IMG/VR virus record: IMGVR_UViG_3300044618_002782
Coordinates: 1-64,000 of that record
Reading direction: 5' to 3' (one strand)
Length of the DNA stretch: 64,000 nt
Source of the DNA: a virus
Lineage: Duplodnaviria > Heunggongvirae > Uroviricota > Caudoviricetes
Shown: positions 1 to 29,296 of the stretch, one piece after another
Position numbering within the stretch: the first letter of the stretch is position 1
Layout: each line of letters starts with the position of its first letter
Notes under the pieces: model-generated
The model's database searches: none
What the model saw: only the letters and a program-made list of their open reading frames with translations
Told to the model about the DNA's origin: nothing
Translations under genes and position numbers: made by a program

Positions 1-440
1 ACAATTATATCGCACAGGCCGCACGTAATGCTGCCTATAAGGCCGCACGTCGATATGATGCACTGACCATGAACGACAGTCGTGCTGCAATGGAACAAGA
101 AATGCGTGACATTATCACACAAACTCTTGCTGATGAAAAGCTCAACGGTTCGGTTACTATTACACAAGTATTAATCCGTCAGATTACTCCTGCAGATTCG
201 GTGGTTGCTAGTGCTAACGAGTTAGTTCGTGCTAAGAATGAGCTGTTGCAAAAAGAAGTTGAAGTTAAAACAGCCGAAGCAGAATCACGTCGTATGGCAG
301 CACTTACAAATCAAAGCTCGGCTAGTATTGCTTACATGAATGCACAAGCAGCACTTAACATCTCCGAAGGTGTCAAGAACGGTAAGGTACAGACCATTAT
401 TGTGCCTAGCAATATGACTGGGTTGATGATTGGGAAATAA
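1..440 (+). CDS. SPFH/band-7 (stomatin/prohibitin/HflC-like) domain protein, C-terminal part; 5' partial (reading frame open to window start)
   Basis: ORF 69..440 has no in-frame stop back to position 3. The sequence AEAESRRMAAL...NAQAAL is alanine/glutamate-rich and typical of the SPFH C-terminal helical region. Stop at 438-440 is followed by a hairpin terminator. Confidence 0.45.
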   Translation, partial: NYIAQAARNAAYKAARRYDALTMNDSRAAMEQEMRDIITQTLADEKLNGSVTITQVLIRQITPADSVVASANELVRAKNELLQKEVEVKTAEAESRRMAALTNQSSASIAYMNAQAALNISEGVKNGKVQTIIVPSNMTGLMIGK

Positions 441-462
441 ACAACACAATTAGTCAGAGTAC

Positions 463-487
463 GAAGCCCCGTCAGGGGCTTCTTTGT
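463..487 (+). terminator. rho-independent terminator hairpin GAAGCCCC-GTCA-GGGGCTTC followed by TTTGT
   Basis: Perfect 8-bp GC-rich inverted repeat with a T-rich tail, immediately after the stop at 440. Confidence 0.5.
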
Positions 488-504
488 GGCTAAATATTAC
501 TACT

Positions 505-894
505 ATGAGAATAACAGAAATTGCCCAAGATCCCAACATATGGCGCACTAATTTGCGCATAGGTCAATATTTAGATCCCAACACTGCTGAATTCGAAAAG
601 GCCGACGATTATTTAGATGCCGGACTACTGCATCAGGCTGCAGAAGCACAGATAGCAGCCGGAGTTGAACCTGAAGTAGCTACAGTAAATCCTGCTCAGC
701 TGTTTGCCACACAAGACTGGCTCAGCAACTACGGTAGTGATGGTGCTTTGTTTGATGAGTATGAAGATTTGCCAGTAGTTTACAAAAAAAACAATAGACT
801 TTATATATTAGACGGACACCACAGAAGTGCCCGGGCCTTGAAGTCGGGTACACCGATGCGTGTGTACGTGTTTGGCGACTCTACTACAAAATAA
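505..894 (+). CDS. ParB-like nuclease domain protein (LDGHHR motif)
   Basis: YILDGHHRSARAL matches the ParB/sulfiredoxin-fold DGHHR signature. The track ORF starts at 484, inside the terminator stem, so the internal Met (MRITEIAQ) at 505 is preferred. Stop TAA at 892-894. Confidence 0.5.
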   Translation: MRITEIAQDPNIWRTNLRIGQYLDPNTAEFEKADDYLDAGLLHQAAEAQIAAGVEPEVATVNPAQLFATQDWLSNYGSDGALFDEYEDLPVVYKKNNRLYILDGHHRSARALKSGTPMRVYVFGDSTTK

Positions 895-898
895 ACCT

Positions 899-2950
899 AT
901 GATAAAAAAGATCTTGCTAAGTCCCTGGACTGCGGTTGTTACTCTGGCCTTGATTGTAGGCATTCGTGCGGCCGATCCTGCATTTGTTGAAAGCGTTCGC
1001 TTGCGATATTTTGATACACTTATTGTTAATCAGTCTCCCACTGTCAACGAAATTTGGACTGTGGACATAGACGAAGCTGCAATCAACAAACATGGCCAAT
1101 GGCCCTTTCCCAGAACAATATATGCTGAGTTGATCGAAGAACTGTATCGCCGAGATGCTGGTCTGGTGGTATTCAATGTACTGATGCCAGAAACAGATCG
1201 TGCCGGCGGCGATGCTGCATTGTCGTCTGTAATGCAAAAGCACCTGGTAATCTTACCTAATATTCCAGCTGAACAAAATAAAAATACTCCACGTAGACCT
1301 GGATCTGCTGTGATTGGATCGCAATACTTGGATCGCATTGTGTCATATCCTGGCATGATCGCCAACATCCTAGAATTAGAACGATCGGCACGGGGAGTAG
1401 GAACTGTTCATACCTTGCCAGAATTAGACGGTGTCAATAGACGCATGCCGTTGGTGATTGCTGTAGGCGATAACTTGTACCCTAGCTTGGCATTTGAAAT
1501 CATGCGAGTGGCTGCATCTGATACTACATTTCAAGTCAAACTGAATGAGTCAGGAGTAGAACGCATACGTATTCCCAAGTTTGGTCCTGTTGCTACTGAC
1601 AGCCTGGGTCGGGTATGGATTGATTGGAGCCAAACTGCACATTCAACCACTATAACTACGTTACCTGAATCGTTTGATGGTGCCCTGGTCATTGTAGGTC
1701 CAACTGCAGCTGGTATCAGTAATCCAGTGGCAACCAGTTTAGGTGCTGTTCATCCTCATGCAGTACAGGCCGCAGTGGTAGGCACCCTGTTAAACGGTGT
1801 TGCAATCCAAAGACCAGACTGGGCAGACGGTGCTGAAATCGTAGCACTGGTCGTGTTGAGTATCATATTATTAATATTAACAAGGTGGGTTTATGTTGGA
1901 ATTATTTCTGCTGTTGTCGTGCTTGCTGGCAGTGTCGGTAGTAGCTTATATTTGTTTTCTGCTTATAGTTGGCTCGTGGATAGTAGTGCTATCGCTGTGG
2001 GCTTGGGTCTTGTTCTTCTGCATGCTTATGGTGTTAAGTTTGTAAGTGAGTTTTTGCAGAAGCAGGCTATTAAGAAACAGTTTGCTGGCTATGCTTCACC
2101 TACTGTGGTTCGACTGCTGCAAGAGAATCCCAGTCTAATCAAAGACGGTGTCAAGAAAGAAGTATCAATCTGCTTCAGTGACCTGCGTGGCTTTACACCC
2201 CTGGGAGAAAGTTTTGGGGACGATGTCAAAGGCCTAACAGAAGTCATGAACGGCTACATGGATGCTATCACTCGACCAATACTAGAAGCCAACGGTATGA
2301 TCATCAAGTACATTGGTGATGCAAGTATGCACATACACAACGCTCCTATAGATGATCCGGATCATGCAAAGACTGCTGTGGCAGTGGGACTCAAGATGGT
2401 TCAAGCAGTCAAAGAGTTCAGTCAAGAATTAGAAGCCAAAGGACGCCCTGGGGTCAAGATGGGTGCAGGTATCAACACAGGCCTAGGCTACATCGGCGAA
2501 ATGGGATCAACTGCACGACACAGTTATGATGTGTTGGGTGACGCTGTAAGTACTGCAGCTCGTATTGAAAGCAAGTGTAAAGAATATGGTTGTGTACTGT
2601 TAGTTGGAGAGAACACAGTCAAGCAATGCGGCGATTCGTTCTTGTTTCTCAAGATTGATGACTTGGCTGTCAAAGGCAAATCAGTCGGAGTTGGTATACA
2701 CACAGTATTAGATACTGATGCAGGTGCCATGACAGAATACTTAATGGCACAGACAACACACGACGAAATGCATCGTCTGTATCGAGCACAGGAATTTGAT
2801 CAAGCTATCGATCTTTGTCAAGAACTTAAATCAGAGTTCGATGGTCAAATGACCGATTACTATGACATGTGGATTGAACGCTGCGAGTTCCAAAAGACAC
2901 AAAAGTTACCAGCCGACTGGTCTGGAATTTTTATAGCTACAACCAAGTGA
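899..2950 (+). CDS. membrane-bound class III adenylate/guanylate cyclase with an N-terminal periplasmic CHASE2-like sensor domain
   Basis: Signal peptide/TM MIKKILLSPWTAVVTLALIVG. A ~300-aa extracytoplasmic region is followed by 3-4 TM helices (IVALVVLSIILLIL..., VGLGLVLLHAYGV). The cyclase core shows ICFSDLRGFTPL (F[ST]D[IL]xGFT signature) and IKYIGDASM, plus a helical C-terminal tail. ATG at 899 is preferred over the track's GTG at 860. Confidence 0.65.
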   Translation: MIKKILLSPWTAVVTLALIVGIRAADPAFVESVRLRYFDTLIVNQSPTVNEIWTVDIDEAAINKHGQWPFPRTIYAELIEELYRRDAGLVVFNVLMPETDRAGGDAALSSVMQKHLVILPNIPAEQNKNTPRRPGSAVIGSQYLDRIVSYPGMIANILELERSARGVGTVHTLPELDGVNRRMPLVIAVGDNLYPSLAFEIMRVAASDTTFQVKLNESGVERIRIPKFGPVATDSLGRVWIDWSQTAHSTTITTLPESFDGALVIVGPTAAGISNPVATSLGAVHPHAVQAAVVGTLLNGVAIQRPDWADGAEIVALVVLSIILLILTRWVYVGIISAVVVLAGSVGSSLYLFSAYSWLVDSSAIAVGLGLVLLHAYGVKFVSEFLQKQAIKKQFAGYASPTVVRLLQENPSLIKDGVKKEVSICFSDLRGFTPLGESFGDDVKGLTEVMNGYMDAITRPILEANGMIIKYIGDASMHIHNAPIDDPDHAKTAVAVGLKMVQAVKEFSQELEAKGRPGVKMGAGINTGLGYIGEMGSTARHSYDVLGDAVSTAARIESKCKEYGCVLLVGENTVKQCGDSFLFLKIDDLAVKGKSVGVGIHTVLDTDAGAMTEYLMAQTTHDEMHRLYRAQEFDQAIDLCQELKSEFDGQMTDYYDMWIERCEFQKTQKLPADWSGIFIATTK

Positions 2951-3193
2951 TTACTTGACCATGCTTAATATCAGTGTGCAGACTTGTACCAAGTGACGGA
3001 ATGCAATTTCGTTACCGGCACAAACTTCAGCAGCACGGATATCACGTATTTCAGACATTAAATGATGGCGTTCTTGGGCGGATAGGTCGCCACGAGCATA
3101 AGCATCTTCGATTGCTTGCATTTCTGTTGCAATACCAGTAAACACTGGATCTACCAGTTTGAGTTGTTCTAATACGTCAATTGAATTTATCAT
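2951..3193 (-). CDS. hypothetical protein (80 aa)
   Basis: ORF 2951..3205 re-started at MINSIDV (3193), which forms an ATGA overlap with the upstream lipoprotein stop. Last gene of a five-gene translationally coupled minus-strand operon. Confidence 0.35.
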   Translation of the reverse strand: MINSIDVLEQLKLVDPVFTGIATEMQAIEDAYARGDLSAQERHHLMSEIRDIRAAEVCAGNEIAFRHLVQVCTLILSMVK

Positions 3194-3531
3194 CTTCCTT
3201 CCCATGCTGTCCGTGCTGCTGAAATTCTTCCTGCTGCTGTTCTCTTTCCCAGTTCGCAGAATGTCTTGCTACCACCTTGATTCATGCGTTCTACGTGTTT
3301 ATATAGCCCTGCAAGATTGTCAGCCTGCGGATCATGGCGCCAGGCTGTATACCGTGACAAGGCCTGCGACTGCTGCATAGCCGGTTGCCAATTGGGTCGA
3401 TCGCAATCTACCTGTTCAACTTGTAGGCTCAATACTACCAATTGTCCGAACATAACAGGATCATGTGCTCGCGGTAGTAAGCTACATCCAGTTAAAGTCA
3501 CGGCTATCAACGCTGCGGCAAGATATTTCAT
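3190..3531 (-). CDS. lipoprotein (signal peptide + lipobox LTGC); o-spanin-like candidate
   Basis: MKYLAAALIAVTLTGCSLLP has a hydrophobic signal followed by an L-T-G-C lipobox. Mature part is Pro/Gln-rich with an additional Cys. Its ATG overlaps the stop of the upstream TM/coiled-coil protein (ATGA at 3528-3531). Confidence 0.5.
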   Translation of the reverse strand: MKYLAAALIAVTLTGCSLLPRAHDPVMFGQLVVLSLQVEQVDCDRPNWQPAMQQSQALSRYTAWRHDPQADNLAGLYKHVERMNQGGSKTFCELGKRTAAGRISAARTAWEGR

Positions 3532-3827
3532 TTTTTATCTTCGATTATCTTTTGATTAATTTTGTCTTCGGCTTCCACACGCTCATGTTCAATAGTTTTG
3601 CCACGCAAGTGTAGCACAGTATTGACTTTCTGATTGAGTCTGATTAAATCGTTATCTAACATACGGATACGATCAATAAGAGCGATCAAAACTGTATTGG
3701 CATCACTGATAACTGGCTTGATTTCGGTTGTGGCCCAGGTCCACACATACTTGATCATCATGCCCATTCCCGCTGCAGCCACAATAGGAAATCCGTACTT
3801 GCTGATTAGTTCTGCTATGTCGCCCAT
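3528..3827 (-). CDS. small membrane protein with N-terminal TM helix and C-terminal coiled coil (i-spanin-like or holin-like candidate)
   Basis: GFPIVAAAGMGMMIKYVWTWA is a TM helix. It is followed by a charged helical region (LIALIDRIRMLDNDLIRLNQKV...EDKINQKIIEDKK). Translationally coupled to the lipoprotein gene. Confidence 0.45.
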   Translation of the reverse strand: MGDIAELISKYGFPIVAAAGMGMMIKYVWTWATTEIKPVISDANTVLIALIDRIRMLDNDLIRLNQKVNTVLHLRGKTIEHERVEAEDKINQKIIEDKK

Positions 3828-4006
3828 CAGTCTTTGCTCCTTATAAATTTTTCTAGTGGATCTATTTTTATTAACTTCATGCGACCGTTTTCCTTGACCA
3901 ATCTAAAAACATCGCCGACTTCCCATCCTATTTTTTCAATGTCTAGTTCTCGATCAAACACTATGCTATCTGGGTATAAATCCCACTCGTAGTCATAAAA
4001 GCGCAT
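3827..4006 (-). CDS. hypothetical protein (59 aa)
   Basis: ORF 3827..4009 with a true ATG at 4006 (the first track codon is TTG). Shows 1-nt stop/start overlaps on both sides (TGATG). Confidence 0.3.
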   Translation of the reverse strand: MRFYDYEWDLYPDSIVFDRELDIEKIGWEVGDVFRLVKENGRMKLIKIDPLEKFIRSKD

Positions 4007-4287
4007 CAATCTCTCCTTGCGTCGTTTTTGCCGTCAGCTCGAGCAATACGCTCAACATCTGGTTTGAGACCCAAGGCATTTGATACCACGGCGTCAATTC
4101 GGACCACGTCGTGATTCATGGTTTTGACACGATTATCTAAAGCAGTGATAATTCCGGCCATGCCTTTTACTGCCGAAAGTACGCCAGCTAACAATAATTT
4201 AATAGTTAAGTATACAAAATAACCGCCGGTAATGGCAGCGGCAATTGGAAATCCCAGATCGGATATCAGTTTAAATATTTCGTTCAT
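4006..4287 (-). CDS. small membrane protein, paralog of 3528..3827 (N-terminal TM, C-terminal helical/charged)
   Basis: Shares the N-terminal pattern M..I..LIS..GFPI.AAA..G with 3528..3827. TM helix FPIAAAITGGYFVYLTIKLLLAGVL. First gene of the coupled operon. Confidence 0.45.
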   Translation of the reverse strand: MNEIFKLISDLGFPIAAAITGGYFVYLTIKLLLAGVLSAVKGMAGIITALDNRVKTMNHDVVRIDAVVSNALGLKPDVERIARADGKNDARRD

Positions 4288-4407
4288 ATTATTCTCTTTT
4301 TAAGTGCTCCATTAATATTTAGTCAACACCAATTTGTCTTCAGTGGGTATAGAAAACATCAATGCCGACTATTAAAAAATACAATAGGAAAACCCTATAA
4401 AAATACG

Positions 4408-4437
4408 TTGACTTATAGTATTGAAATCATATATAAT
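4408..4437 (+). promoter_or_regulatory. sigma70-like promoter TTGACT-N18-TATAAT upstream of the rubrerythrin-like gene
   Basis: TTGACT at 4408-4413 and TATAAT at 4432-4437. RBS AAAGGAG lies 7 nt before the ATG at 4493. Confidence 0.45.
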
Positions 4438-4492
4438 AGTTCAAGTCAGTACAAACACTGATATACACATTTTACATCGAAAGGAGTATTAC

Positions 4493-4933
4493 ATGTCAGA
4501 AAGTCTAAAAGGAAGTAAAACCGCAGAATGTCTAAAAGAAGCATTTGCAGGTGAGTCAATGGCCAATCGCCGTTATTTGTATTTTGCAAACTTGTGCGAT
4601 GTAGCAGGTGCGCCCGATGTAGCTGCCTTGTTTCGTTCCACTGCCGAAGGTGAAACAGGACATGCTCACGGTCACATGGAATTCTTGATCAACGGCGGAG
4701 CTGGCGAACCCGGAACAGGTATGCCAGGCACAACACCACAGGAAGCATTGGAAGCAGCTATTCATGGCGAAACCCATGAGTACACAGATATGTATCCAGG
4801 CATGGCTAAAACTGCTCGCGACGAAGGCTTTGACGAAGTTGCTGATTGGTTTGAGACATTGGCCAAAGCAGAACGCTCACATGCCAATCGCTATCAGCGA
4901 GCATTGGACGCATACAAAGCAGAACAAGAGTAA
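4493..4933 (+). CDS. rubrerythrin-like ferritin-fold diiron protein (no rubredoxin domain)
   Basis: N-terminal [21 protein letters not shown] matches the rubrerythrin E..x..AFAGES.A..RY motif. Later ExxH-type motifs present ([18 protein letters not shown]). True start at the internal Met with RBS; the track start at 4421 lacks an RBS. Confidence 0.6.
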
Positions 4934-4959
4934 TTGTAGTCTAACTGTTGTTAACGGTG

Positions 4960-4986
4960 AAAAAGGGCCTTGACGGCCCTTTTTCT
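4960..4986. terminator. bidirectional-looking rho-independent terminator AAAAAGGGCC-TTGAC-GGCCCTTTTT
   Basis: 10-bp perfect inverted repeat flanked by an A-run and a T-run, directly after the stop at 4933. Confidence 0.6.
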
Positions 4987-5028
4987 ATTGTGTTATAATA
5001 TAGTTTTTAATGCTTAGAAGGAACGATT

Positions 5029-5448
5029 ATGTTGGAATGTTTAATATTAGGTGACTCAATTGCAGTAGGTACCAAACAATTTGCACCACAGTGTGAACTG
5101 GTCGGAAAAGGCGGCATCAATACATGGCAGTGGAATAACATGTATCCCACTGCCAATTTAACAGCCGGTGTTGTGATCATCAGTTTGGCCACCAACGACC
5201 ACAAATACATCAAGACTCCACAGGAATTGCGTAAGATGCGAGCTCGTGTCTCGAGCAATCGAGTCTTTTGGGTACTACCTGCTGGCAACTTAAAAGGCAG
5301 CGAAGTGCCAATTGAAACAATACAAGATTATGTAAAAACTGTAGCTGCTGAATACGGTGATACTATATTGCCTATTCACGGACTGCAAAAAGATGGGATT
5401 CACCCCAGCTGGAGTGGGTACCGAGACATTATCGAAAGAACAAAATAA
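5029..5448 (+). CDS. GDSL/SGNH-family hydrolase (esterase/lipase fold)
   Basis: N-terminal ILGDSIAVG (GDS block I). C-terminal DGIHPS (DxxH catalytic block V). Size typical of the family. Confidence 0.6.
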   Translation: MLECLILGDSIAVGTKQFAPQCELVGKGGINTWQWNNMYPTANLTAGVVIISLATNDHKYIKTPQELRKMRARVSSNRVFWVLPAGNLKGSEVPIETIQDYVKTVAAEYGDTILPIHGLQKDGIHPSWSGYRDIIERTK

Positions 5449-5516
5449 AAACAACGTGTCAGTTTTCTTTATTGCATCAATCATAAATAATTTCATAACA
5501 CTGCTAAGGATATTCT

Positions 5517-5852
5517 ATGTCACAATTATTAAAAGTACAATACGAAAAAAATAATGCAACCTTTGTAGATGGCAACGAAGCGTATGCCAATAAAAATTCT
5601 TTATATCCAGCTGAACTAGAACTATCTGTAACAGAAGGCAATAATGCTGCACTTGCTGACGGAGTTTTGTTAGAGCCAATTACGTACAATTGGGATCAGG
5701 AAATTTTTACTTTATCTATTAATAAGCATGTAGTTAGCGGCGATGAATACGAAGCAGTAAGAACATCATTTGGATACGATTCAGATGCTGCTCTTGCTGC
5801 CGATTCAGCAGCCGGTTGGACTTATTTGGGTACTGTTATAACCGAGCAATAA
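5517..5852 (+). CDS. hypothetical protein (acidic, 111 aa)
   Basis: Intact ORF, compositionally coding-like, followed by a terminator. Confidence 0.4.
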   Translation: MSQLLKVQYEKNNATFVDGNEAYANKNSLYPAELELSVTEGNNAALADGVLLEPITYNWDQEIFTLSINKHVVSGDEYEAVRTSFGYDSDAALAADSAAGWTYLGTVITEQ

Positions 5853-5877
5853 TGTTGTAAAAATACAACAAAAATCA

Positions 5878-5901
5878 AGCCCCAAACTGGGGCTTTTTTA
5901 T
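5878..5901 (+). terminator. rho-independent terminator AGCCCCA-AACT-GGGGCTTTTTT
   Basis: GC stem plus a 6-T run immediately 3' of the gene ending at 5852. Confidence 0.55.
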
Positions 5902-5929
5902 TGACCAAAAATACCAGATTTGTTATACT
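5901..5929 (+). promoter_or_regulatory. sigma70-like promoter TTGACC-N17-TATACT
   Basis: Same -35 hexamer and 17-bp spacing as the repeated early-promoter motif. Sits upstream of a 38-aa hydrophobic small ORF. Confidence 0.35.
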
Positions 5930-5935
5930 AACAGT

Positions 5936-6052
5936 ATGATAAAATCACATCCAAATCCTCCCAGCGCATTACGCAATTTTACTACGTTTTTTTTAATGGG
6001 ATTCGTTGAATTTTTGCTAGTTTTTATGTTGCTTTTTGGCATATTTTGGTAG
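5936..6052 (+). CDS. candidate small membrane peptide (38 aa, single TM helix)
   Basis: Manually translated: MIKSHPNPPSALRNFTTFFLMGFVEFLLVFMLLFGIFW. Below the ORF-track length cutoff. No clear Shine-Dalgarno sequence. Confidence 0.25.
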   Translation: MIKSHPNPPSALRNFTTFFLMGFVEFLLVFMLLFGIFW

Positions 6053-6078
6053 ACCAGAAATGCCATTTCGGCTATAAT
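6050..6078 (+). promoter_or_regulatory. conserved early promoter copy 1: TAGACC-N17-TATAAT
   Basis: TGGTAGACCAGAAA...GGCTATAAT...CAAAACAGGAGCAG is near-identical to the copy at 11027-11055, including the downstream RBS context. Confidence 0.55.
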
Positions 6079-6108
6079 GTATATACACTAACAAAACAGG
6101 AGCAGTAA

Positions 6109-6567
6109 ATGTCTAAGTTAATCTCTTTTGCAGGTTATAGCCGTGTAGCAGGTGAGCTCAAATTCCGTACTGCTACCGACGAAAAGCGTATTGAGCAGTT
6201 GGCCAAGCTGGGCGACACTGACATCAACATCATCAAACTGGCCGCACCAGTTGCCACAAAAAATGAAGCTGTTAAGGCAGTGTTGCAATTGTACGGCAAT
6301 GCCGAAGCAGAAGTCACAGCATTTTTGACTGCACAAGTCAAAGACGAGAATCCTTTTGCTAAGGCTCCCAAAGCCAAAAAAGAAGTCCGTGTTAAAGTAA
6401 AGATGTCTAAAGCCAAAAAAAGCAAGACTCCCGAGCCACGTGAGCTGACTGCCAAGGAATTGGCTGCTCTACAGTTTATCGCCTTCCCAGTAGGTAACGG
6501 TGCCATGGCCTACTACCCCAACCCTTTGAGCAAGGTTGCTCAAGACAGCGACGAAGTCGCTGTCTAA
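6109..6567 (+). CDS. hypothetical protein with a Lys-rich basic segment
   Basis: RBS AGGAGCAG upstream. The block KAPKAKKEVRVKVKMSKAKKSKTPEP suggests possible nucleic-acid binding. Confidence 0.5.
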   Translation: MSKLISFAGYSRVAGELKFRTATDEKRIEQLAKLGDTDINIIKLAAPVATKNEAVKAVLQLYGNAEAEVTAFLTAQVKDENPFAKAPKAKKEVRVKVKMSKAKKSKTPEPRELTAKELAALQFIAFPVGNGAMAYYPNPLSKVAQDSDEVAV

Positions 6568-6588
6568 TCTCGGACCAGGAGAAATGCA

Positions 6589-6789
6589 ATGCAGTCATCA
6601 AACAAACTTGATTGGTTTAAGAGTCAATACAGTGATGCTGATCTAGCTGAAATTTTGTCAGACTACCATAAGTCTGTACACGGATTTCGTAAACGCATGC
6701 ACGGAACAGGTCGATGCACACTAGTTCGTGAACTTGAATCATTAGATGCTTACTCAGCTAAGTACGGCTTCTACGAACAAATGGTGTAA
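6589..6789 (+). CDS. hypothetical protein (66 aa)
   Basis: RBS AGGAGA upstream; intact ORF. Confidence 0.4.
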   Translation: MQSSNKLDWFKSQYSDADLAEILSDYHKSVHGFRKRMHGTGRCTLVRELESLDAYSAKYGFYEQMV

Positions 6790-6867
6790 GATTACCAGAT
6801 ACAATGGCCTCGAAAGCCTTGAGTTCTGTGACAGTGATGAATGGATTAAAGCATAAAGGAGACAACT

Positions 6868-7470
6868 ATGCCAGCAGTATTTCTTGTAAGCGACACGCAC
6901 TTCGGGCACAACGGTGTCTGTCATTTCATGCGTAATGATGGCGAGACCAAACTTCGCCCATGGGACACCGCAGACGAAATGGACGAAGAAATGGTCCGGC
7001 GTTGGAACGATACTGTTCGCCCAAATGACAAAGTGTACCACCTGGGCGATGTAGTAATTAATCGCAAAGCACTGGGTATCATGCGGCGTCTCAACGGTGA
7101 TAAGGTTCTTATCCGCGGCAACCATGACATCTTCCGTGATGACGAATACAGACAGCACTTCCGCGAACTTCGTGCATACCACGTTCTTAACGGAATGATT
7201 CTTAGTCATATCCCTTTACATGAAGCAAGTCTCGGTCGCTTTGGCGTTAACATACACGGTCATCTTCATGCAAACCGTGTCGTGAAACCGCGCGGAGTAG
7301 ATGCTCGTACCGGTGAAATCTTATACAGCGATGAGATTGATACACGCTACCATTGTGTTTGTGTTGAGCAAACCGACTTTGCTCCTATTCTTTTTGAAGA
7401 TGTTATCAAACGGATCGAAGCCGAAGGCGGTCGAGTTGGGTTCCAATACGGCAACGGCCCTGCCATGTAA
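6868..7470 (+). CDS. calcineurin-like metallophosphoesterase (Ser/Thr phosphatase-like)
   Basis: Full motif set: VSDTHFGH (GDxHG-type), GDVV (GDxxDRG-type), RGNHD (GNHD/E), IHGHLH (GHxH). RBS AAAGGAG. Confidence 0.7.
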   Translation: MPAVFLVSDTHFGHNGVCHFMRNDGETKLRPWDTADEMDEEMVRRWNDTVRPNDKVYHLGDVVINRKALGIMRRLNGDKVLIRGNHDIFRDDEYRQHFRELRAYHVLNGMILSHIPLHEASLGRFGVNIHGHLHANRVVKPRGVDARTGEILYSDEIDTRYHCVCVEQTDFAPILFEDVIKRIEAEGGRVGFQYGNGPAM

Positions 7471-7500
7471 TACAGCAGGGCCGTAATAGAATTGCTTATC

Positions 7501-8595
7501 CTATATTTTATACAACTTACTCCACGACGTAGGAAGAACGTTTAAATCTTCCTCTTTCTTCTGAAATTCAGGAAAGTCTTTCATGGCTATTTTTATACGG
7601 TCGCTTTGTTCAACTACATATCTACGCCATGCTTGATACGCCTTCCATTCTGGCTGGTCTGGGCTTATTTGATAAAACCAATTAGTGGTTTCAATTTTAA
7701 CGGTTCGAGCAGGTTTTTTTGTTTGCCAGGGCAATTTGTAATCTGGATAAACAATATTAGAAACAACACGATTATACCAATCGGCATCTCGAGATTTACG
7801 ATTTGAAATCTTGGGTATATGTTGTGGATTTTTTAAAAACCATTTTTTAACCAAGTGTACTTGTTTTTTTAATATGTCAATTGTTGCCGGAGTGTTGTCC
7901 CAAAAAAACAAAATATTGTTTTGATTGTTTTCATTGAAGCACTGAAAGTTCACTGCATGGTCTGGAAAAAACAGATAAAAATTGCCATTTTCGTAATGTA
8001 GATTTGGTTTTTCAATGCCATATATGTTGGCAGTCGATTGGTCTGTTAAATTAAACGAATTTTCGATCAAATTCAATCTGGAAATAATTGATGGTTGCGG
8101 AATATTCAATAAAGTTGTATCAAGCTTTGTGTTTGCCCATAATTTTATCATGTCATCGCCTGTTTCCCAAGTTTCCCATTTGAGAGTAGGATCTAGTTCT
8201 AGCAAGGCCTTGTAGGATGGATAAGCTGATAGTTTGCCTTCGGCGTTTAAATTTTCTGCTCCTATTGTTTTAAAATCTTTTACAAATTCATACGATCGGT
8301 AAATTAACCGATCAATTTTCAATCCAGCAGTCAGGAAAGAATATGCAACCTGCCAGCTGTCTGATCCGCCGCTGTAGTGCAGATACACACGACTGTGTTG
8401 TTCTCTAATTTCTTTCGCACGACGTTGATATAATACCGACAGAGATTCCTCTGGTTCAACAGACCAGTCAACCAACGAAAAATATTTTTCATAGAAATTC
8501 CAATGAGGCCACCAGCCATTTGGGGTAGCCTCTTCTATTGCTTGCAATTTGCTGGCATACTGTTTACCAGCTACTTCATAATATCCGTATTTCAT
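7501..8595 (-). CDS. PP-loop ATP-pyrophosphatase superfamily protein (SGGxDS; PAPS-reductase/QueC-like fold)
   Basis: VYLHYSGGSDSWQV carries the SGGxDS P-loop signature of adenine-nucleotide alpha-hydrolases. Exact subfamily not determinable by eye. Confidence 0.5.
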   Translation of the reverse strand: MKYGYYEVAGKQYASKLQAIEEATPNGWWPHWNFYEKYFSLVDWSVEPEESLSVLYQRRAKEIREQHSRVYLHYSGGSDSWQVAYSFLTAGLKIDRLIYRSYEFVKDFKTIGAENLNAEGKLSAYPSYKALLELDPTLKWETWETGDDMIKLWANTKLDTTLLNIPQPSIISRLNLIENSFNLTDQSTANIYGIEKPNLHYENGNFYLFFPDHAVNFQCFNENNQNNILFFWDNTPATIDILKKQVHLVKKWFLKNPQHIPKISNRKSRDADWYNRVVSNIVYPDYKLPWQTKKPARTVKIETTNWFYQISPDQPEWKAYQAWRRYVVEQSDRIKIAMKDFPEFQKKEEDLNVLPTSWSKLYKI

Positions 8596-9470
8596 CTGCT
8601 TGTCTTCGTAATTTGCAACACGTCAGTGATCAATGATTTAATCATTTTTTTGCCATCCTGTTGTTCTTTGTCGGTTGTGACATAACGAATTTCGAAACCG
8701 GTTGTACTAACATCAACCGATGTGTTGCTTATTGCTTGTCTCACACGTGATAACATATCGTGCGATAATCCAACTGCTCCCAATGCAAATGTCGAGGTAT
8801 ATTCATTTATTACCTTGTCCCCAGTGGGGTGCAGACTGGAGAAATTTGCCAGGGCAGACGCAGTTGCTGTTGAAGCAAAGCACTTTATTTTTCCACTTGA
8901 TATGTGTTTTTTGGCAGCAATGGCCTGTAACACAGCCACTTGTATATCTTTGGCCAGTAAGGCCATTGCTGCCTCGGTGCTGTTACCAAAAGAAATAGAT
9001 TTGTGAGTTGTGTGATTTTTGCGGTTGTAATCGCTGATCCAACTACTGAATGGCGCAGCACCGGTGCTGCCAATAGTCAATTGCTTTTTTTGTCTAAAAG
9101 AATTACTATCCTGAATTGCAGAATCTGCAAGTGAGCACATTAGATACGGATCAGAAACAGTGGCCACCCATTCAATTGAGTCTAAGTCAATCACGCAAGC
9201 TTTTTCATTTTTTTGCAGACTGAGCCAGTAACGGCCGCCTGAAAAGTACACCAACTTAGCTGCAGGATCAGCTTGGTAAGCTGTCATGCCTCCGCAACCC
9301 ATTCCTCGCTTGGCAGTGACTGAGATGCCCTTGGATTCCAAGCTATCAATCCATGCATCCTGAATTAGCACAGTGGGCTCAGTACGCGACGACAGCTGAT
9401 AGTAGGTTAAATCTGCAGCACCAACCACTGATGATGCTGTGATAAAAAACGCAATAATTAATTTTTTCAT
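8592..9470 (-). CDS. secreted protein with N-terminal signal peptide; possible periplasmic solute-binding component
   Basis: MKKLIIAFFITASSVVGAADL is a signal peptide. A ~270-aa mature region lies immediately downstream of the TctA-like permease gene, coupled by an overlap with the next gene. Confidence 0.4.
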   Translation of the reverse strand: MKKLIIAFFITASSVVGAADLTYYQLSSRTEPTVLIQDAWIDSLESKGISVTAKRGMGCGGMTAYQADPAAKLVYFSGGRYWLSLQKNEKACVIDLDSIEWVATVSDPYLMCSLADSAIQDSNSFRQKKQLTIGSTGAAPFSSWISDYNRKNHTTHKSISFGNSTEAAMALLAKDIQVAVLQAIAAKKHISSGKIKCFASTATASALANFSSLHPTGDKVINEYTSTFALGAVGLSHDMLSRVRQAISNTSVDVSTTGFEIRYVTTDKEQQDGKKMIKSLITDVLQITKTSR

Positions 9471-9485
9471 TATAAAAATTTCCCT

Positions 9486-10814
9486 TTAATTTAGTAATTG
9501 AACTGCAACAGATACTGCCGACAAGCATGGCTTAGCTATCATAAAAGTTAATACTGCTGGCAGTGTGTCAATATTTTTCTTGTAACAAATCCATCCAATG
9601 GGTAACAACACTAACAAAGAAATAAAATCAGTAAACACACGATATTGATCAATTGCTTGATAGATTATAGCACCTACGATAATTATAACAACAGTTGAGT
9701 ATAAATGTAAAAAAGAAATTTTAGATATTATTTTAATAATAGTTGATGCACAATTCCAAGCAACAAAAGTCATGATACCGGAACCTACTACAAGGCTACA
9801 TAACAAGATATTTAAGTTAGTGAAATTTCCAAATGCCAATGACTCAAACCATGAATATCCAAACGACGGAGTACTGGTACTGATTACATTGTAAATTACC
9901 ATTTCGGACGCAGTAATCGGAATCCCAAATGCTATCAAAGGAATCATACTGCTGATTACAGAAGAATTATTGGCTGCTTCTGCAGATGCCAACTGCTTGG
10001 ATTGTTGACGATTAATTCTTTTCTCAACAAATGCCGAGACATTGCTACAAATAGATGTACCTACAGCAGGTATTAGTCCTAACAAAACTCCTAGAAACGA
10101 ACCTCTTACAATAGATTGGTATCGATTGGCTGCAAGTTTTACAGTCTGACTCATACGATGTTTGCTAGCCAAATTAGCTGTGTTAAATTTAATTCGACCA
10201 AACATTAACAACTGAGGCACAATAAAAATACAAAATAAAAAAACTGTTACAGATACACCTGGATCTAGGATCACTGAATTAAATGTCAGTATGGATCCAA
10301 AATTTGGATGATATCCAATCAATCCAACGGTAAATCCAGTTACTATTAATATCAGATTGATAAGATAATTTTTGTTGTAAACAATCATCAAAATAATAAT
10401 AGACAAAAATATAAAGACTTGAACGAAAATACTGTAAAACTTAGCATTGTTGTAAAACAAATTTGCAATTGTTGGGACAAGAAAAACAGCAATCAATGAT
10501 GCCATTGTGCCACCAATGGCACAAATTCCCAAGGCTTCAAACCCTTTTCCTTTTTTAAATAATTTATGTCCAGATGTTGCTGACACGGTTGACGATATTT
10601 CACCTGGTACCCCAGCTACCACTCCAATGACAGCACCGGTGTATTGCGATGCCACTAACATGCCGCTATAGAAAAGCATAATTGATAGCACATCAGTAGA
10701 TATCAGTACAGGATAAAAAAGTATTACTAAAGCCAGAGGCCCGAAGCCAGGTAGAATCCCGGTTGCGATTCCTGACAGTATTCCTATCGTCCAAAAAACA
10801 AATGACTCTATCAT
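9486..10814 (-). CDS. TctA-family (DUF112) integral membrane transporter subunit-like protein
   Basis: 442-aa polytopic membrane protein. N-terminal GILSGIATGILPGFGPLALVILFYP matches the TctA G-x3-G-x2-PG-x-G signature. At least 10 predicted TM segments. Confidence 0.55.
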   Translation of the reverse strand: MIESFVFWTIGILSGIATGILPGFGPLALVILFYPVLISTDVLSIMLFYSGMLVASQYTGAVIGVVAGVPGEISSTVSATSGHKLFKKGKGFEALGICAIGGTMASLIAVFLVPTIANLFYNNAKFYSIFVQVFIFLSIIILMIVYNKNYLINLILIVTGFTVGLIGYHPNFGSILTFNSVILDPGVSVTVFLFCIFIVPQLLMFGRIKFNTANLASKHRMSQTVKLAANRYQSIVRGSFLGVLLGLIPAVGTSICSNVSAFVEKRINRQQSKQLASAEAANNSSVISSMIPLIAFGIPITASEMVIYNVISTSTPSFGYSWFESLAFGNFTNLNILLCSLVVGSGIMTFVAWNCASTIIKIISKISFLHLYSTVVIIIVGAIIYQAIDQYRVFTDFISLLVLLPIGWICYKKNIDTLPAVLTFMIAKPCLSAVSVAVQLLN

Positions 10815-10998
10815 TAAATGATTTTATATTAGATGTAATTGATAATACAATTTATTTTGTTGGCGTTCTGTAGCAACACTACAGTAAAGGTATAATGTAC
10901 CAGGCGTTTTGATATATTCTACGTCAATTGTAATAATCGGCGTTAACAAATATATTTATACCTTGCATAGACAACTGTTGTTTTTTTGCAACATCAAA

Positions 10999-11020
10999 AA
11001 GCCCTGCAATTGGGGCTTTC
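10999..11020 (+). terminator. hairpin AAAGCCC-TGCAATT-GGGGCTTTC
   Basis: GC stem followed by a T-rich stretch, just upstream of a conserved promoter copy. May insulate from the divergent TctA region. Confidence 0.4.
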
Positions 11021-11026
11021 TTCTGG

Positions 11027-11055
11027 TAGACCAGAAACCCTAAATCGGCTATAAT
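11027..11055 (+). promoter_or_regulatory. conserved early promoter copy 2: TAGACC-N17-TATAAT
   Basis: CTGGTAGACCAGAAACCCTAAATCGGCTATAAT followed by CAAAACAGGAGCAG RBS. Near-duplicate of 6050-6078. Confidence 0.55.
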
Positions 11056-11085
11056 AGTTATACAGTAGCAAAACAGGAGCAGGTG

Positions 11086-11214
11086 ATGCGTACAGTTAAA
11101 GTGATGTTAGTACAGCGTAGACGTGTAGCACAGTTTACACTTCCGCAGACTCCAGAAGCACAAGTAATCCGCGCCCAGCTTCGCGCCAAATTAACCCAAG
11201 CACTTAGCAAGTAG
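11086..11214 (+). CDS. candidate small basic protein (42 aa)
   Basis: MRTVKVMLVQRRRVAQFTLPQTPEAQVIRAQLRAKLTQALSK. Preceded by the same promoter + RBS as gene 6109. Below the track cutoff. Confidence 0.35.
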   Translation: MRTVKVMLVQRRRVAQFTLPQTPEAQVIRAQLRAKLTQALSK

Positions 11215-11223
11215 GAGCAGGAA

Positions 11224-11526
11224 ATGAGAAAAGCAAAAGCAGTCCCTGTAGTCCCGGCAGTAGACAACTCAGCCGTATACGATATCTCTAATAAAGATGC
11301 AACTAAAGATATGGACCGCATCAAAAAAGAATTCAAGTACTATAAACTAGGCATCACTCCAGATATGGCCAAAGCAGTTAACGTTCATGTGAAGAAGCAT
11401 GGTACTGGTCAAATTTGGAATCACTTTGGTGATGCAGACGGAAATGATCCTGATTGGTGGGATTGGAGAAATGGTCGAGTTCACAAATTGAAGTTGAAAC
11501 CAGCTTACTGGGTTCCAGTACGTTAA
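11224..11526 (+). CDS. hypothetical protein (100 aa)
   Basis: RBS GGAGCAGG immediately upstream; Trp-rich C-terminal end. Confidence 0.45.
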   Translation: MRKAKAVPVVPAVDNSAVYDISNKDATKDMDRIKKEFKYYKLGITPDMAKAVNVHVKKHGTGQIWNHFGDADGNDPDWWDWRNGRVHKLKLKPAYWVPVR

Positions 11527-11539
11527 TTGAAAAGGAAAA

Positions 11540-11710
11540 ATGATGACATTAGAACAACTGAAACAAGAACGCGATCGCATCTTAGCTGCCAATGCTTGGT
11601 GGAAAGATCGACCCATGCAAGACGGTAGCTACGAAGCTTCTATTACATTTGATGGCTTTTACCGCATCCAAGACCAAATCCGCGAATTGGAAACAGTTGA
11701 CCAGAAATAG
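11540..11710 (+). CDS. candidate small protein (56 aa)
   Basis: MMTLEQLKQERDRILAANAWWKDRPMQDGSYEASITFDGFYRIQDQIRELETVDQK. RBS AAAGGAAAAA upstream. Its 3' end overlaps the next promoter. Confidence 0.3.
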   Translation: MMTLEQLKQERDRILAANAWWKDRPMQDGSYEASITFDGFYRIQDQIRELETVDQK

Positions 11711-11725
11711 CATTTCGTCTATAAT
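11697..11725 (+). promoter_or_regulatory. conserved early promoter copy 3: TTGACC-N17-TATAAT
   Basis: TTGACCAGAAATAGCATTTCGTCTATAAT, then RBS ACGGAGA before the ATG at 11757. Confidence 0.55.
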
Positions 11726-11756
11726 AGTACATACACTAGCGAAACGGAGAAATTAA

Positions 11757-11978
11757 ATGTACCAAGCCCAAGTTACCCAAGTAAAATTGAACGAAAATCT
11801 GGACAAGTACGAAGTCTCCATTGAGGTGTTTGATGAACGTGGTGGCATTGCTGTGTTTACCAGTGCTGCAATTTTCCCCGATGCCGACTATGCCCTGGAA
11901 GCTGGATACTCAGCTGTCAACACCTACAAGGCCACCGGTCGCTTTCCCAACATGACAGACCTACCAGTAGAGGCCTAA
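11757..11978 (+). CDS. hypothetical protein (73 aa)
   Basis: Intact ORF with promoter and RBS. Confidence 0.45.
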   Translation: MYQAQVTQVKLNENLDKYEVSIEVFDERGGIAVFTSAAIFPDADYALEAGYSAVNTYKATGRFPNMTDLPVEA

Positions 11979-11979
11979 T

Positions 11980-12174
11980 ATGACACCACACGCACTTGCT
12001 GAATCCATCCGTAATCGCCTGTTTGCCGACCGTGACAACTTTGATGACGCTTTGGACTATGCTTATAGTATTGCCCGGGGCACAGACAATCCAGCGGCTG
12101 TAATGACAGCGGTCATGGTGGTTGTTAATACGCTAGCCAATTACATTGAACAGACCGAGACAGACCAGGTCTAG
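11980..12174 (+). CDS. hypothetical protein (64 aa)
   Basis: Starts 1 nt after the previous stop (coupled). Confidence 0.4.
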   Translation: MTPHALAESIRNRLFADRDNFDDALDYAYSIARGTDNPAAVMTAVMVVVNTLANYIEQTETDQV

Positions 12175-17286: not shown

Positions 17287-17610
17287 ATGGCTCGTATCAA
17301 GCAGTTTCCTACCTACGCCGTTGTTAACAATGAGACTCAGTGGCAACTTGTAGACGACAAACCAGTTAAGATATCTACCGTTATTGTACACGAATTTTCC
17401 ATAGGCGATGTAGAGGATCCTGATATCTATGCTGCTGACCCATTACTGGCGTGGCAGCACAGCGAAGCTGGTATGTGGGTTATGGAACACAGTGTAGAGC
17501 TGCCGCAATGGCATCGTCGAGTTGATCAGTACACGTATGGATATCGGTACTGTATTGCAGCAAGATTAACAGAACAAAACGAATTATTTTTTAAGTTGAA
17601 ATTCCAATGA
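17287..17610 (+). CDS. hypothetical protein (107 aa)
   Basis: Intact ORF; ATGA overlap with the epimerase gene. Confidence 0.4.
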   Translation: MARIKQFPTYAVVNNETQWQLVDDKPVKISTVIVHEFSIGDVEDPDIYAADPLLAWQHSEAGMWVMEHSVELPQWHRRVDQYTYGYRYCIAARLTEQNELFFKLKFQ

Positions 17611-28044: not shown

Positions 28045-28176
28045 TATACTTTCCTATTAAACATACTTGTCAACTATGAGTTTAATTATTTTATTGATTA
28101 AAACAATGGTATACTCAAAATTAGATCACTGTAACTCTGATAATCAAAAACTCTCTCTCTAAAACAATTATATTTT

Positions 28177-29295: not shown

Positions 29296-29296
29296 A

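Follow-up and report, generated by a model that had tools for sequence, protein, structure and literature searches.

Why would a large tailed phage carry a gene for a membrane-bound sensor cyclase, what would such a protein respond to, and what would it produce? These questions are raised by an open reading frame near the start of the window, i.e., the stretch of 64,000 nucleotides analysed here (IMG/VR record IMGVR_UViG_3300044618_002782, positions 1 to 64,000), which belongs to a 199-kb source contig, Ga0335020_0000007 of JGI 3300034082.

The gene, its predicted architecture and its phage origin

The ORF listing gives a frame at 860..2950 (plus strand) that opens at a GTG. In all homologues aligned, the start is a Met equivalent to the ATG at 899, from which the gene for a CHASE2-class III cyclase (899..2950, plus strand; assigned by Pfam and PHROG) encodes 683 residues followed by a stop codon. 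The initial annotation, which described a membrane protein of 684 residues at 899-2950, was correct about the frame and the nature of the product, and had counted the stop codon in the length. In the PHROG search the protein was aligned over its full length with phrog_35576 (644 bits), and more than 8000 database proteins are matched at E ≤ 1e-10. The gene is found on more than 280 IMG/VR viral contigs and in two cultured phages, Melnitz (gp104, 50.7% identity over the full length) and HTVC008M (36% identity). The similarity is confined to the protein level, i.e., a megablast search with window positions 1-8000 against the phage collection returned no match. Relative to one 93%-identical relative, dN/dS is 0.05 for the CHASE2 domain and 0.04 for the cyclase domain, which indicates that the gene is under purifying selection. 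Judged by its sequence, the gene is real and intact and encodes a membrane-bound sensor adenylate cyclase of a large phage, an assignment that is far beyond chance.

The CHASE2 profile (PF05226) matches residues 14-325 (938..1873, plus strand; E = 8.8e-37, 127.5 bits against a cutoff of 26.3) and takes in profile positions 1-256 of 257, which bears out the earlier reading of the extracytoplasmic domain as a CHASE2 sensor. In an AF2 model (pLDDT 88.4), helices are found at residues 9-25, 309-327, 331-356 and 362-395. The first and second of these enclose an alpha/beta domain, the CHASE2 fold of which (residues 28-300) has a pLDDT above 90. Hydropathy is maximal at residues 4-22 and across residues 307-385, in the same regions as one N-terminal transmembrane (TM) helix (residues about 4-25, 908..973, plus strand) and the multi-TM segment noted earlier, composed of three helices (residues about 307-385, 1817..2053, plus strand), the third of which runs on as a cytoplasmic helix to about residue 395. 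A domain flanked by one N-terminal and three C-terminal TM helices is the arrangement that CHASE2 proteins require, and the topology predicted from the model is extracytoplasmic. The N-terminal hydrophobic stretch had been interpreted as a signal peptide. It is probably the first TM helix and an uncleaved anchor: an AXA-type cleavage site is absent by eye, and in the model the helix at 9-25 is nearly continuous with one at 28-43.

The Guanylate_cyc profile (PF00211) matches residues 419-595 (2153..2683, plus strand; E = 1.7e-18, 67.3 bits against a cutoff of 21.9), and the cyclase fold occupies residues 418-603 of the model. The FSDLRGFT motif, by which a cytoplasmic cyclase core had been recognised, is present and supplies the first metal-binding Asp, D428. 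The catalytic domain is followed by a three-helix extension identified by alignment (residues 612-666, 2732..2896, plus strand; AF2 helices 612-629, 633-643 and 652-666), which is shared by the clade and most bacterial relatives and which HTVC008M lacks; many cluster representatives of 720-780 residues align up to residue 683.

The window also contains a baseplate wedge gene (phrog_10646, E = 5e-122) nearest to those of Rak2/Atu_ph07/PBECO4-type jumbo phages, a match to a scaffolding-protein PHROG, thyX and other phage genes. That the sequence is instead cellular, or a mis-called viral contig with an ordinary bacterial CHASE2 cyclase, is extremely improbable. Such an origin could be argued from relatives in MAGs labelled Rhodobacteraceae, Chitinophagaceae, Marivivens, Algoriphagus and Pelagibacter and from the porin and OmpA genes (Porin_4 and OmpA) located upstream of the window start on the source contig. 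However, the MAG matches lie on contigs of 0.7-36 kb with conflicting taxonomy and the whole phage-type module aboard, and cultured lytic phages carry the gene. A genome-contig search with very family-specific patterns returned mostly short MAG contigs with the phage module, and the sole true chromosomal relative that it found is 32% identical. The core of the initial annotation, a CHASE2-sensor class III nucleotidyl cyclase in a phage, is thus upheld by the domain, residue and phage-origin evidence. The marine host and the early-region position suggested there find no such support. The only host hint, a faint one, is to freshwater Burkholderiales; the host is probably a freshwater betaproteobacterium.

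The active site and the predicted product

Active-site residues were placed via HMMER alignments to CyaB and Cya2, and their conservation was counted in 181 close relatives and in 150 cluster representatives. The metal-binding residues D428 (2180-2182) and D474 (2318-2320), the substrate Lys K470 (2306-2308) and the catalytic Arg R555 (2561-2563; all on the plus strand) are invariant (181/181), and the substrate Asp D544 (2528-2530, plus strand) is found in 180 of the 181 relatives. Both metal-binding Asp residues, the loss of which would mark a pseudo-cyclase, are thus in place. At both positions that separate ATP from GTP enzymes (Lys/Asp versus Glu/Cys), K470 and D544 constitute the ATP-type pair, and the predicted product is cAMP.

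The transition-state Asn-Arg pair is incomplete: R555 is kept, while S551 (2549-2551, plus strand) stands at the canonical position of the catalytic Asn, a Ser that is fixed in 180/181 close relatives. In the mammalian AC this Asn is described as essential in the account of Yan et al. 1997 given in PMC4215837. The replacement could have left a catalytically weak or dead cyclase-like protein acting as a scaffold or an ATP-binding sensor. We consider this improbable, because all other catalytic residues are invariant and the low dN/dS extends to the cyclase domain. M. avium Ma1120 (PDB 4wp3) is a soluble minimal cyclase, lacking a sensor domain, with Ala at the position of S551. It has a Lys/Asp pair and is an active AC, the activity of which is destroyed when the Asn is restored (PMC4215837). 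Furthermore, in the 150 cluster representatives the Asn-to-Ser change at 551 is coupled to a Ser/Thr-to-Asp change at 544, which looks like a re-tuned site and not like decay.

Ser/Thr at 544 and Asn at 551 are found in at least 117 of the 150 cluster representatives and, as Ser/Asn, in HTVC008M, whereas Asp/Ser is common to the window cyclase and Melnitz. In the class IIIb catalytic domain of P. aeruginosa CyaB (PDB 3r5g), the positions of D544 and S551 are occupied by Thr and Asn. The membrane sensor of CyaB is MASE2, not CHASE2. The class IIIb signature, i.e., Thr/Ser at the second substrate position, is absent from the window cyclase. Judged from these alignments, the window clade descends from IIIb-type ancestors and has since lost the signature, and the Asp/Ser swap is clade-specific, which is a new point of the present analysis.

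It would be rather surprising if the product were another nucleotide (cGMP, cCMP, cUMP or other) and the role that of interfering with, or mimicking, cyclic-nucleotide immune signalling of the Pycsar type. The models for PycC do match the protein, but only in the generic catalytic domain (55 bits), and PycC is soluble while this protein is a membrane receptor. Among the neighbours of the cyclase PADLOC gave no match, and a PycTM or PycTIR effector was not found adjacent to it.

The curli secretion and FecR neighbourhood

The cyclase was previously placed beside a ParB-like nuclease and an SPFH protein. The genes do lie near it, and 4 nt separate the cyclase from the ParB-like gene, but the ParB-like assignment falls under the Pfam threshold (20.8 bits versus 23.6) and the SPFH ORF at 69-440 covers just a C-terminal portion of a gene whose start precedes the window (8742-9542 on the source contig). 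The ParB-like gene recurs in one related locus, and SPFH in two, there only at a distance. From this comparison both are lineage-specific inserts, and the conserved context is a CsgF-CsgG-curlin-FecR cluster.

Inside the 64-kb window, no curli genes were found by tblastn; the cluster sits just upstream on the source contig. There, CsgF (2552-3001), CsgG (3060-3773), a curlin protein (Curlin_rpt, 3790-4401) and a FecR-domain protein with a hydrophobic, signal-peptide-like N-terminus (4334-5425) are encoded on the same strand as the cyclase, which in this numbering is at 10001-12052. Evidence that the FecR protein ends in a curlin-like repeat is weak (E = 0.033 in pairwise comparison). All 54 cyclase loci with at least 8 kb of upstream sequence have CsgF, CsgG and FecR, in 52 cases upstream on the same strand. 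Counted from CsgG, a cyclase is found within 10 kb in 27 of 34 viral loci, and in the remaining seven, less than 3.1 kb of sequence is left beyond the CsgG start. Where the module is compact, FecR is immediately followed by the cyclase. By gene order the cyclase closes a conserved "curli secretion + FecR" module of phages.

On the other side of the cyclase lies a gene (3528..3827, minus strand) that here converges on it and that accompanies the module in 39/39 loci with both flanks. Its 99-aa product (phrog_18771, E = 1.6e-28) begins with a TM helix, is predicted to form a coiled coil and matches no Pfam domain. A paralogue of 93 aa (4006..4287, minus strand; phrog_18771, E = 7.6e-30) follows, and between these two small TM genes lies a 60-aa ORF (3827..4009, minus strand; called as 59 aa on the source contig), which has a tblastn match at the same relative position in 43 cyclase loci. 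The phrog_18771 proteins have homologues ahead of CsgF in Melnitz (gp97/98) and in HTVC008M (AGE60345/6), and would correspond to the "HK" genes in the module of Wittmers et al. 2022. Searches of Pfam and NCBIfam give no sign, even at E < 5, that the small TM proteins are histidine kinases.

A phage cyclase of this family is already known, having been annotated since 2013 and discussed in 2022, when Wittmers et al. described an "adenylate cyclase" (AC) and FecR in pelagiphage T8SS/curli regions (PMC9599517); a search of that text for "CHASE2" gives no match. The pelagiphage AC, together with Melnitz gp104 (QZI94833.1) and HTVC008M AGE60353.1, belongs to the same protein family as the window cyclase and has the same neighbours, i.e., small TM proteins, CsgF, CsgG, curlin and FecR. 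The window phage differs in its Rak2/Atu_ph07/PBECO4-type baseplate wedge, its 199-kb contig and six extra genes between FecR and AC, and HTVC008M differs from both the window phage and Melnitz in its active site and the lack of a C-terminal tail. Three accounts of the "curli operon" in phages of SAR11 and OM43 have led to no agreement on its function, and the proposals include sibling capture, a lysis pore, nutrient uptake and a superinfection block (PMC7029224, PMC9004378, PMC9599517). The new points here are that the sensor is CHASE2, that the pair of FecR and a CHASE2 cyclase is also found in bacteria (see below) and that the carrier has a baseplate like that of Rak2/Atu_ph07-type jumbo phages. 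Judged by sequence relationships, the module occurs in a Rak2/Atu_ph07-like phage of ~200 kb as well as on IMG/VR contigs as long as 364 kb, and its range probably extends beyond marine systems.

Alternatively, as the initial annotation framed it, the cyclase could work independently of curli and FecR, as an auxiliary gene in its own right by which the phage rewires the cAMP of its host (carbon/nitrogen status) or takes it over early in infection. This is unlikely, although several observations agree with it: FecR is 4.6 kb away here, with six genes between it and the cyclase that include PstS-like, Metallophos, GT4, SPFH and ParB-like genes; the cyclase is close behind the ParB-like gene, and a promoter scan found no sigma-70-like site ahead of it, counts being at background; and, according to Wittmers et al. 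(PMC9599517), AC is not always found in curli regions. Against it stand the linkage to CsgF, CsgG and FecR in every locus with enough flank, the presence of a cyclase in every CsgG-seeded locus that reaches far enough, and a sensor that looks into the periplasm and not at cytoplasmic metabolite pools.

Bacterial FecR-CHASE2 pairs and a possible signalling route

FecR and a CHASE2 cyclase are paired in 6/6 informative bacterial neighbourhoods (Inquilinaceae, Pelagibius, Afipia, Neomegalonema and two metagenome contigs), often together with a type I (T1SS) or two-partner secretion system and, in two cases, with a cNMP_binding protein. The Alphaproteobacterial clusters contain the closest cellular homologues of the phage cyclase, at about 30-34% identity, in the same length class and with a shared C-terminal tail. 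The adjacent partner has a FecR domain homologous to the phage FecR (E = 1.6e-16 for the Inquilinaceae adhesin), and in these bacteria that domain forms the N-terminus of cadherin/Ig adhesins of 1000-2100 aa. These clusters differ from the phage module in that a T1SS or two-partner system takes the place of CsgG/CsgF, and in that the cyclases have the Ser/Thr and Asn active site of the class IIIb type instead of Asp/Ser.

Two characterised systems resemble this arrangement. In S. meliloti, the CHASE2 cyclases CyaD1, CyaD2 and CyaK produce cAMP when NsrA, an outer-membrane protein, relays a signal to them, and CyaD1 without its CHASE2 domain synthesises cAMP constitutively (PMC5498481, PMC13001267). 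Like the phage protein, they combine CHASE2 with a class III cyclase, a likeness of architecture and gene neighbourhood: cyaD1 (SMc02176) adjoins the FecR-domain gene smc02177 (PMC5498481, PMC13001267). CyaD1 is, however, encoded by a bacterial chromosomal gene with the Crp-type receptor Clr next door, and none was seen near the phage gene. The Burkholderia "BiofilmReg" operon likewise places a periplasmic FecR-domain protein (LysM-FecR) beside a CHASE2 sensor, but the output is a histidine kinase with a response regulator and not a cyclase, and no secretion pore is encoded (PMC5192318).

We consider it probable that the phage protein is a receptor-type, membrane-bound class III adenylate cyclase that constitutes the cytoplasmic signalling output of a phage envelope module. 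In this module CsgG and CsgF would form the outer-membrane pore, and the other members would be a protein with curlin repeats, a FecR-domain protein that is secreted, the two small TM proteins and the CHASE2 cyclase itself. The CHASE2 domain would face the periplasm, held by its one N-terminal and three C-terminal TM helices, with the cytoplasmic helix joining the last of these to the cyclase domain. The latter is most likely a homodimer that would form cAMP from ATP, as the Lys470/Asp544 pair suggests. By analogy with S. meliloti CyaD1, CHASE2 would keep the cyclase off until a cue arrives, and this cue most likely comes from the FecR-domain protein in the periplasm or from the state of the secretion pore on which FecR reports. 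On the other hand, SMc02177 is dispensable for perceiving the signal and lies downstream of cAMP-Clr as one of its targets (PMC5498481, PMC13001267), and FecR may thus be an output partner rather than an input.

Counting against the receptor-cyclase reading are the Asn-to-Ser551 replacement, the six genes between FecR and the cyclase, and the fact that neither a cNMP receptor nor a phosphodiesterase was found nearby: no cNMP-binding receptor (PF00027) is present among the tested window proteins or in the 10 kb upstream, and the window and the same 10 kb yielded no cAMP phosphodiesterase. Many product names in Melnitz are "hypothetical" and hence uninformative on a cNMP receptor. Two Metallophos proteins (window 6868-7470; source contig 6577-7407) were considered as cAMP phosphodiesterases, but their phmmer matches in the PDB are only to aq_1665 and LpxH-like proteins and not to CpdA, which leaves that assignment unsupported.

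A wider and more tentative proposal, which we hold to be possible but doubtful, is that FecR-domain proteins are periplasmic partners or ligands of CHASE2 sensors, that the pair is a general "secretion-state" sensor and that phages captured it from Alphaproteobacteria. When a fibre or adhesin is secreted, its FecR domain would remain in the periplasm and tell CHASE2 whether the outer-membrane exporter is loaded, export proceeding via a T1SS, two-partner secretion or, in phages, CsgG/CsgF. A phage could in this manner respond to the state of its own curli pore or fibre with a pulse of cAMP, e.g., for lysis timing or as a superinfection signal, and the re-tuned Asp544/Ser551 site would be part of the adaptation to the phage.

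Identification of the AC as a CHASE2 receptor, as the sequence suggests, would give the curli module a measurable output, cAMP, and a concrete candidate interaction. The CHASE2 ligand is called unknown in the literature considered here, and the invariant FecR neighbour is therefore a useful lead beyond phages. The Rak2/Atu_ph07-like carrier, in turn, widens the known range of the curli-FecR module.

The CHASE2 receptor cyclase and its active site

The gene at window 899-2950 (+) encodes a membrane-bound receptor cyclase. Its CHASE2 domain is periplasmic, and its catalytic core is intact and under selection. The gene lies in one long ORF (window 860-2950, +), in which translation from the ATG at 899 yields 683 aa and a stop codon (the 684 aa of the initial annotation included the stop); alignment shows that the equivalent Met is the start in all homologues. 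The initial description of a CHASE2-sensor class III cyclase is borne out by Pfam, which identifies the extracytoplasmic domain as CHASE2 (PF05226, residues 14-325, E 8.8e-37) and finds Guanylate_cyc (PF00211, residues 419-595, E 1.7e-18), both far over the curated thresholds. Hydropathy analysis places one hydrophobic helix at the N-terminus (residues 4-22) and a further hydrophobic block across residues 307-385. A confident AlphaFold2 model (pLDDT 88.4), obtained with an alignment of 64 phage and bacterial homologues, is composed of an N-terminal helix (aa 9-25), an alpha/beta domain (aa 28-300), three long helices (aa 309-327, 331-356 and 362-395), the cyclase fold (aa 418-603) and a C-terminal three-helix tail (aa 612-666). 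In comparison with a 93%-identical homologue, the cyclase domain has a dN/dS of 0.04 and CHASE2 one of 0.05.

Roles of the active-site positions are assigned from the established C1/C2 numbering of mammalian AC. The six canonical class III positions were located via HMMER alignments to CyaB (3r5g) and Cya2 (2w01/6fht). Both metal-binding Asp residues are present, D428 (motif FSD) and D474 (motif IGD), i.e., the alignment does not support a pseudo-cyclase that lacks them. The substrate residues, for which the initial annotation considered both ATP and GTP, are K470 and D544 (motif YDVLG), so that ATP is the predicted substrate. The transition-state Arg is R555, while the position of the transition-state Asn is occupied by S551 (motif GDAVSTAAR).

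Among 181 distinct relatives, D428, K470, D474 and R555 are invariant, and D544 and S551 are each found in 180; the single exception is phage HTVC008M, with Ser544/Asn551. In a wider comparison of 150 cluster representatives from a library of 1.8 billion proteins, nearly all more distant full-length relatives carry Ser/Thr544 and Asn551, which is the class IIIb pattern, and the Asp544/Ser551 pair is restricted to the clade of the window and phage Melnitz. The loss of Asn at 551 is thus coupled to the change at 544, fixed, and specific to this clade, and does not represent decay. A precedent for an active Lys/Asp cyclase without this Asn is Ma1120 of M. avium, which has Ala where the phage protein has Ser551, and in which restoring the Asn abolished activity (PMC4215837).

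Phage carriers and the curli-FecR module

Phages carry the CHASE2 cyclase gene. At the nucleotide level window 1-8000 has no match in the phage collection. It encodes a baseplate wedge protein (window 61894-63966, -; phrog_10646, E 5e-122), one protein that matches scaffolding and virion-protein PHROGs, a CobS-like ATPase, a DUF2201 protein, thyX and further phage genes. Along its full length, the cyclase aligns with an established phage protein family (phrog_35576, 644 bits), and it is related to gp104 of Methylophilales phage Melnitz (50.7% identity, 99% coverage) and to an annotated gene of Pelagibacter phage HTVC008M (36% identity). Relatives are found on 287 viral contigs in IMG/VR, and over 8000 proteins of a large collection match at E<=1e-10. 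Related contigs reach 317-364 kb. A scan of genome contigs also returned L087-L094, contigs of 0.7-36 kb binned as Rhodobacteraceae, Chitinophagaceae, Marivivens, Algoriphagus, Bacteroidetes and Pelagibacter MAGs; the three with enough upstream DNA hold the complete phage-type module described below, and L087-L094 probably are phage contigs that were assigned to bacterial MAGs by mis-binning.

In Melnitz and HTVC008M the gene order is CsgF, CsgG, a curlin-repeat protein, a FecR-domain protein, a second repeat protein and, last, the cyclase; in the compact form, CsgF-CsgG-curlin-FecR-cyclase, there is no gene between. This linkage was examined in both directions. Of 82 loci with the cyclase, 54 include at least 8 kb of upstream DNA, and every one of these contains CsgF, CsgG and FecR (on the same strand and upstream in 52/54), and a small phrog_18771 TM protein is found in 39/39 loci having both flanks. 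Seeding from CsgG gave 34 viral loci, 27 with the cyclase within 10 kb; the other seven all stop less than 3.1 kb beyond the CsgG start. The cyclase is thus genetically linked to the CsgG/CsgF pore, curlin-repeat proteins, a secreted FecR protein and two small TM proteins.

The window itself holds no Csg or FecR genes, only because it begins 900 nt upstream of the cyclase. An exact-sequence look-up traces the window to a 199,497-bp JGI contig (L083; 3300034082, Ga0335020_0000007), on which one strand carries, in order, Porin_4, OmpA, CsgF, CsgG, Curlin_rpt and FecR, followed by six inserted genes (L083 5498-9996, the last 894 nt being window 3-894) and the cyclase. The 363-aa FecR protein has a hydrophobic, signal-peptide-like N-terminus and a possible C-terminal curlin-like repeat (weak match, E 0.033). 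The inserted genes encode a PstS-like PBP_like_2 protein, an LpxH-like Metallophos protein, a GT4 glycosyltransferase, a 58-aa ORF, an SPFH/Band_7 protein and a ParB-like protein (motif DGHHR). All six occur together only on this contig; one close relative has the PstS-like and ParB-like genes, another the PstS-like, Metallophos and GT4 genes. The initial annotation took the SPFH and ParB-like genes as the context of the cyclase. These lie outside the conserved module and are lineage-specific insertions: ParB-like lies beside the cyclase in just a single related locus, and SPFH recurs in just two, several kb downstream. The functional framing offered there, i.e., rewiring of host cyclic-nucleotide signaling or interference with defense, is to be replaced by the T8SS-FecR module context.

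Downstream, five small genes (84, 113, 99, 60 and 93 aa) converge on the cyclase. The 84-aa ORF and a 113-aa putative lipoprotein (window 2951-3531, -; LPAM_1-like N-terminus, E 0.004) abut the cyclase stop codon without a gap and have counterparts in the closest relative alone. The proteins of 99 and 93 aa (window 3528-3827 and 4006-4287, -) are phrog_18771 paralogues, both of which combine an N-terminal TM helix with a coiled coil; they correspond to the conserved proteins ahead of CsgF in Melnitz and HTVC008M, and the pair always accompanies the module. They are probably the "histidine kinase" of PMC9599517; no kinase or HisKA domain is detectable in them, and a weak holin-family match (E 7e-4) covers only the first 20 residues. 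A phage-encoded rubrerythrin (window 4421-4933, +; Pfam E 3e-25) and a TctA-family membrane protein (window 9486-10814, -) are also located near the cyclase.

The best matches of the baseplate wedge protein (~30% identity) are in jumbo phages of the Rak2/PBECO4/Atu_ph07/Phosso type, not in T4-like pelagimyophages; therefore, the module resides here in another phage lineage, a Rak2/Atu_ph07-like phage of ~200 kb. Directly before CsgF are a Porin_4-type general porin and an OmpA-domain protein (L083 701-2427, about 7-8 kb upstream of the window start). The porin is 64% identical to a porin of Zwartia sp. (Burkholderiales), a weak hint that the host may be a freshwater betaproteobacterium rather than a marine bacterium.

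FecR pairing in bacteria and a possible signaling route

The genome scan yielded one true chromosomal relative, in an Inquilinaceae alphaproteobacterium (32% identity). Here, the gene ahead of the cyclase, with overlapping stop and start codons, encodes an Ig/cadherin adhesin of 2107 aa that carries a FecR domain at its N-terminus; genes for a T1SS ABC transporter and an HlyD-type protein follow. The FecR domain is homologous to that of the phage (E 1.6e-16). Six more bacterial neighborhoods were inspected, of which a Geminicoccales contig ends at the upstream gene and is uninformative. Immediately upstream of the cyclase are a FecR+VWA protein in Pelagibius and a 215-aa FecR protein on a JGI metagenome contig; an ENA metagenome contig has FecR and ShlB/TPS two-partner secretion divergent from the cyclase. 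Afipia combines a giant FecR protein, T1SS and cyclase, next to a cNMP_binding protein, and Neomegalonema a FecR-cadherin adhesin, cyclase and T1SS, next to cNMP_binding and cNMP_binding-EAL proteins. A FecR partner is thus found in 6/6 informative neighborhoods, Inquilinaceae included, and in bacterial loci L095, L133 and L137 the FecR domain forms the N-terminus of giant cadherin/Ig adhesins beside a CHASE2 cyclase and T1SS. FecR and the CHASE2 cyclase are an ancestral pair in Alphaproteobacteria, alongside secretion machines. In the searched literature we found no description of such a FecR-adhesin/CHASE2-cyclase/T1SS signaling cluster.

Similar pairings are known. In S. meliloti the FecR-domain gene smc02177 adjoins cyaD1 (SMc02176); CHASE2 cyclases there answer a signal passed on by the outer-membrane barrel NsrA, and a CyaD1 construct without CHASE2 is constitutive, but signal perception did not need the FecR protein (PMC5498481, PMC13001267). 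In Burkholderia a LysM-FecR protein is paired with a CHASE2 histidine kinase (PMC5192318) instead of a cyclase.

By a mechanism that we infer, the phage cyclase would dimerize and make cAMP, with CHASE2 holding it off until it senses either the FecR-domain protein or the condition of pore or fiber; the cAMP could then act on a receptor in the phage or host. The window and the 10 kb upstream yielded neither a cNMP-binding protein nor a cAMP phosphodiesterase. Membership in Pycsar was considered and rejected: PADLOC PycC models match the domain only as generic homology, and no Pycsar effector is nearby.

The cyclase family is already known, having been annotated in GenBank since HTVC008M and discussed in 2022, and the novelty is modest. 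Wittmers et al. 2022 described an adenylate cyclase in pelagiphage T8SS regions, together with FecR and one or two "histidine kinases", termed FecR and AC "putatively regulatory" and presented an AC phylogeny that suggests an alphaproteobacterial origin (PMC9599517); this paper is absent from the text-search matches for "CHASE2". Two myophage papers discuss the curli genes and never mention the cyclase (PMC7029224, PMC9004378), and no description of a phage CHASE2 cyclase was found in the searched literature. The points of interest are the identification of the sensor as CHASE2, the coupled Asp544/Ser551 change and the occurrence of the module in a Rak2/Atu_ph07-like phage. The general FecR-CHASE2 pairing suggests a testable partner for CHASE2, the ligand of which is described as unknown in the literature consulted.

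Other features of the window

Directly downstream of the baseplate wedge gene is a single ORF of 4690 aa (window 47819-61894, -) without a Pfam match at E<=0.001; its product may be a giant fiber or host-recognition protein. A large modification island (window 17607-19660, +, and 26626-40810, -), the target of which could be a sugar or a peptide, encodes several radical SAM/SPASM proteins, an epimerase and a DegT aminotransferase (17607-19660, +), a Nol-like carbamoyltransferase (29297-30787) and an APS-kinase-like P-loop protein (40004-40810). An AAA ATPase (phrog_1297; window 12259-13347, +) is paired with a DUF2201_N/DUF2201 protein (window 14059-15330, +) that PHROGs labels "HNH endonuclease" (phrog_1314); we suspect this label to be an error, given the similarity of the two genes to the CobS/CobT-like pair noted in pelagiphages.
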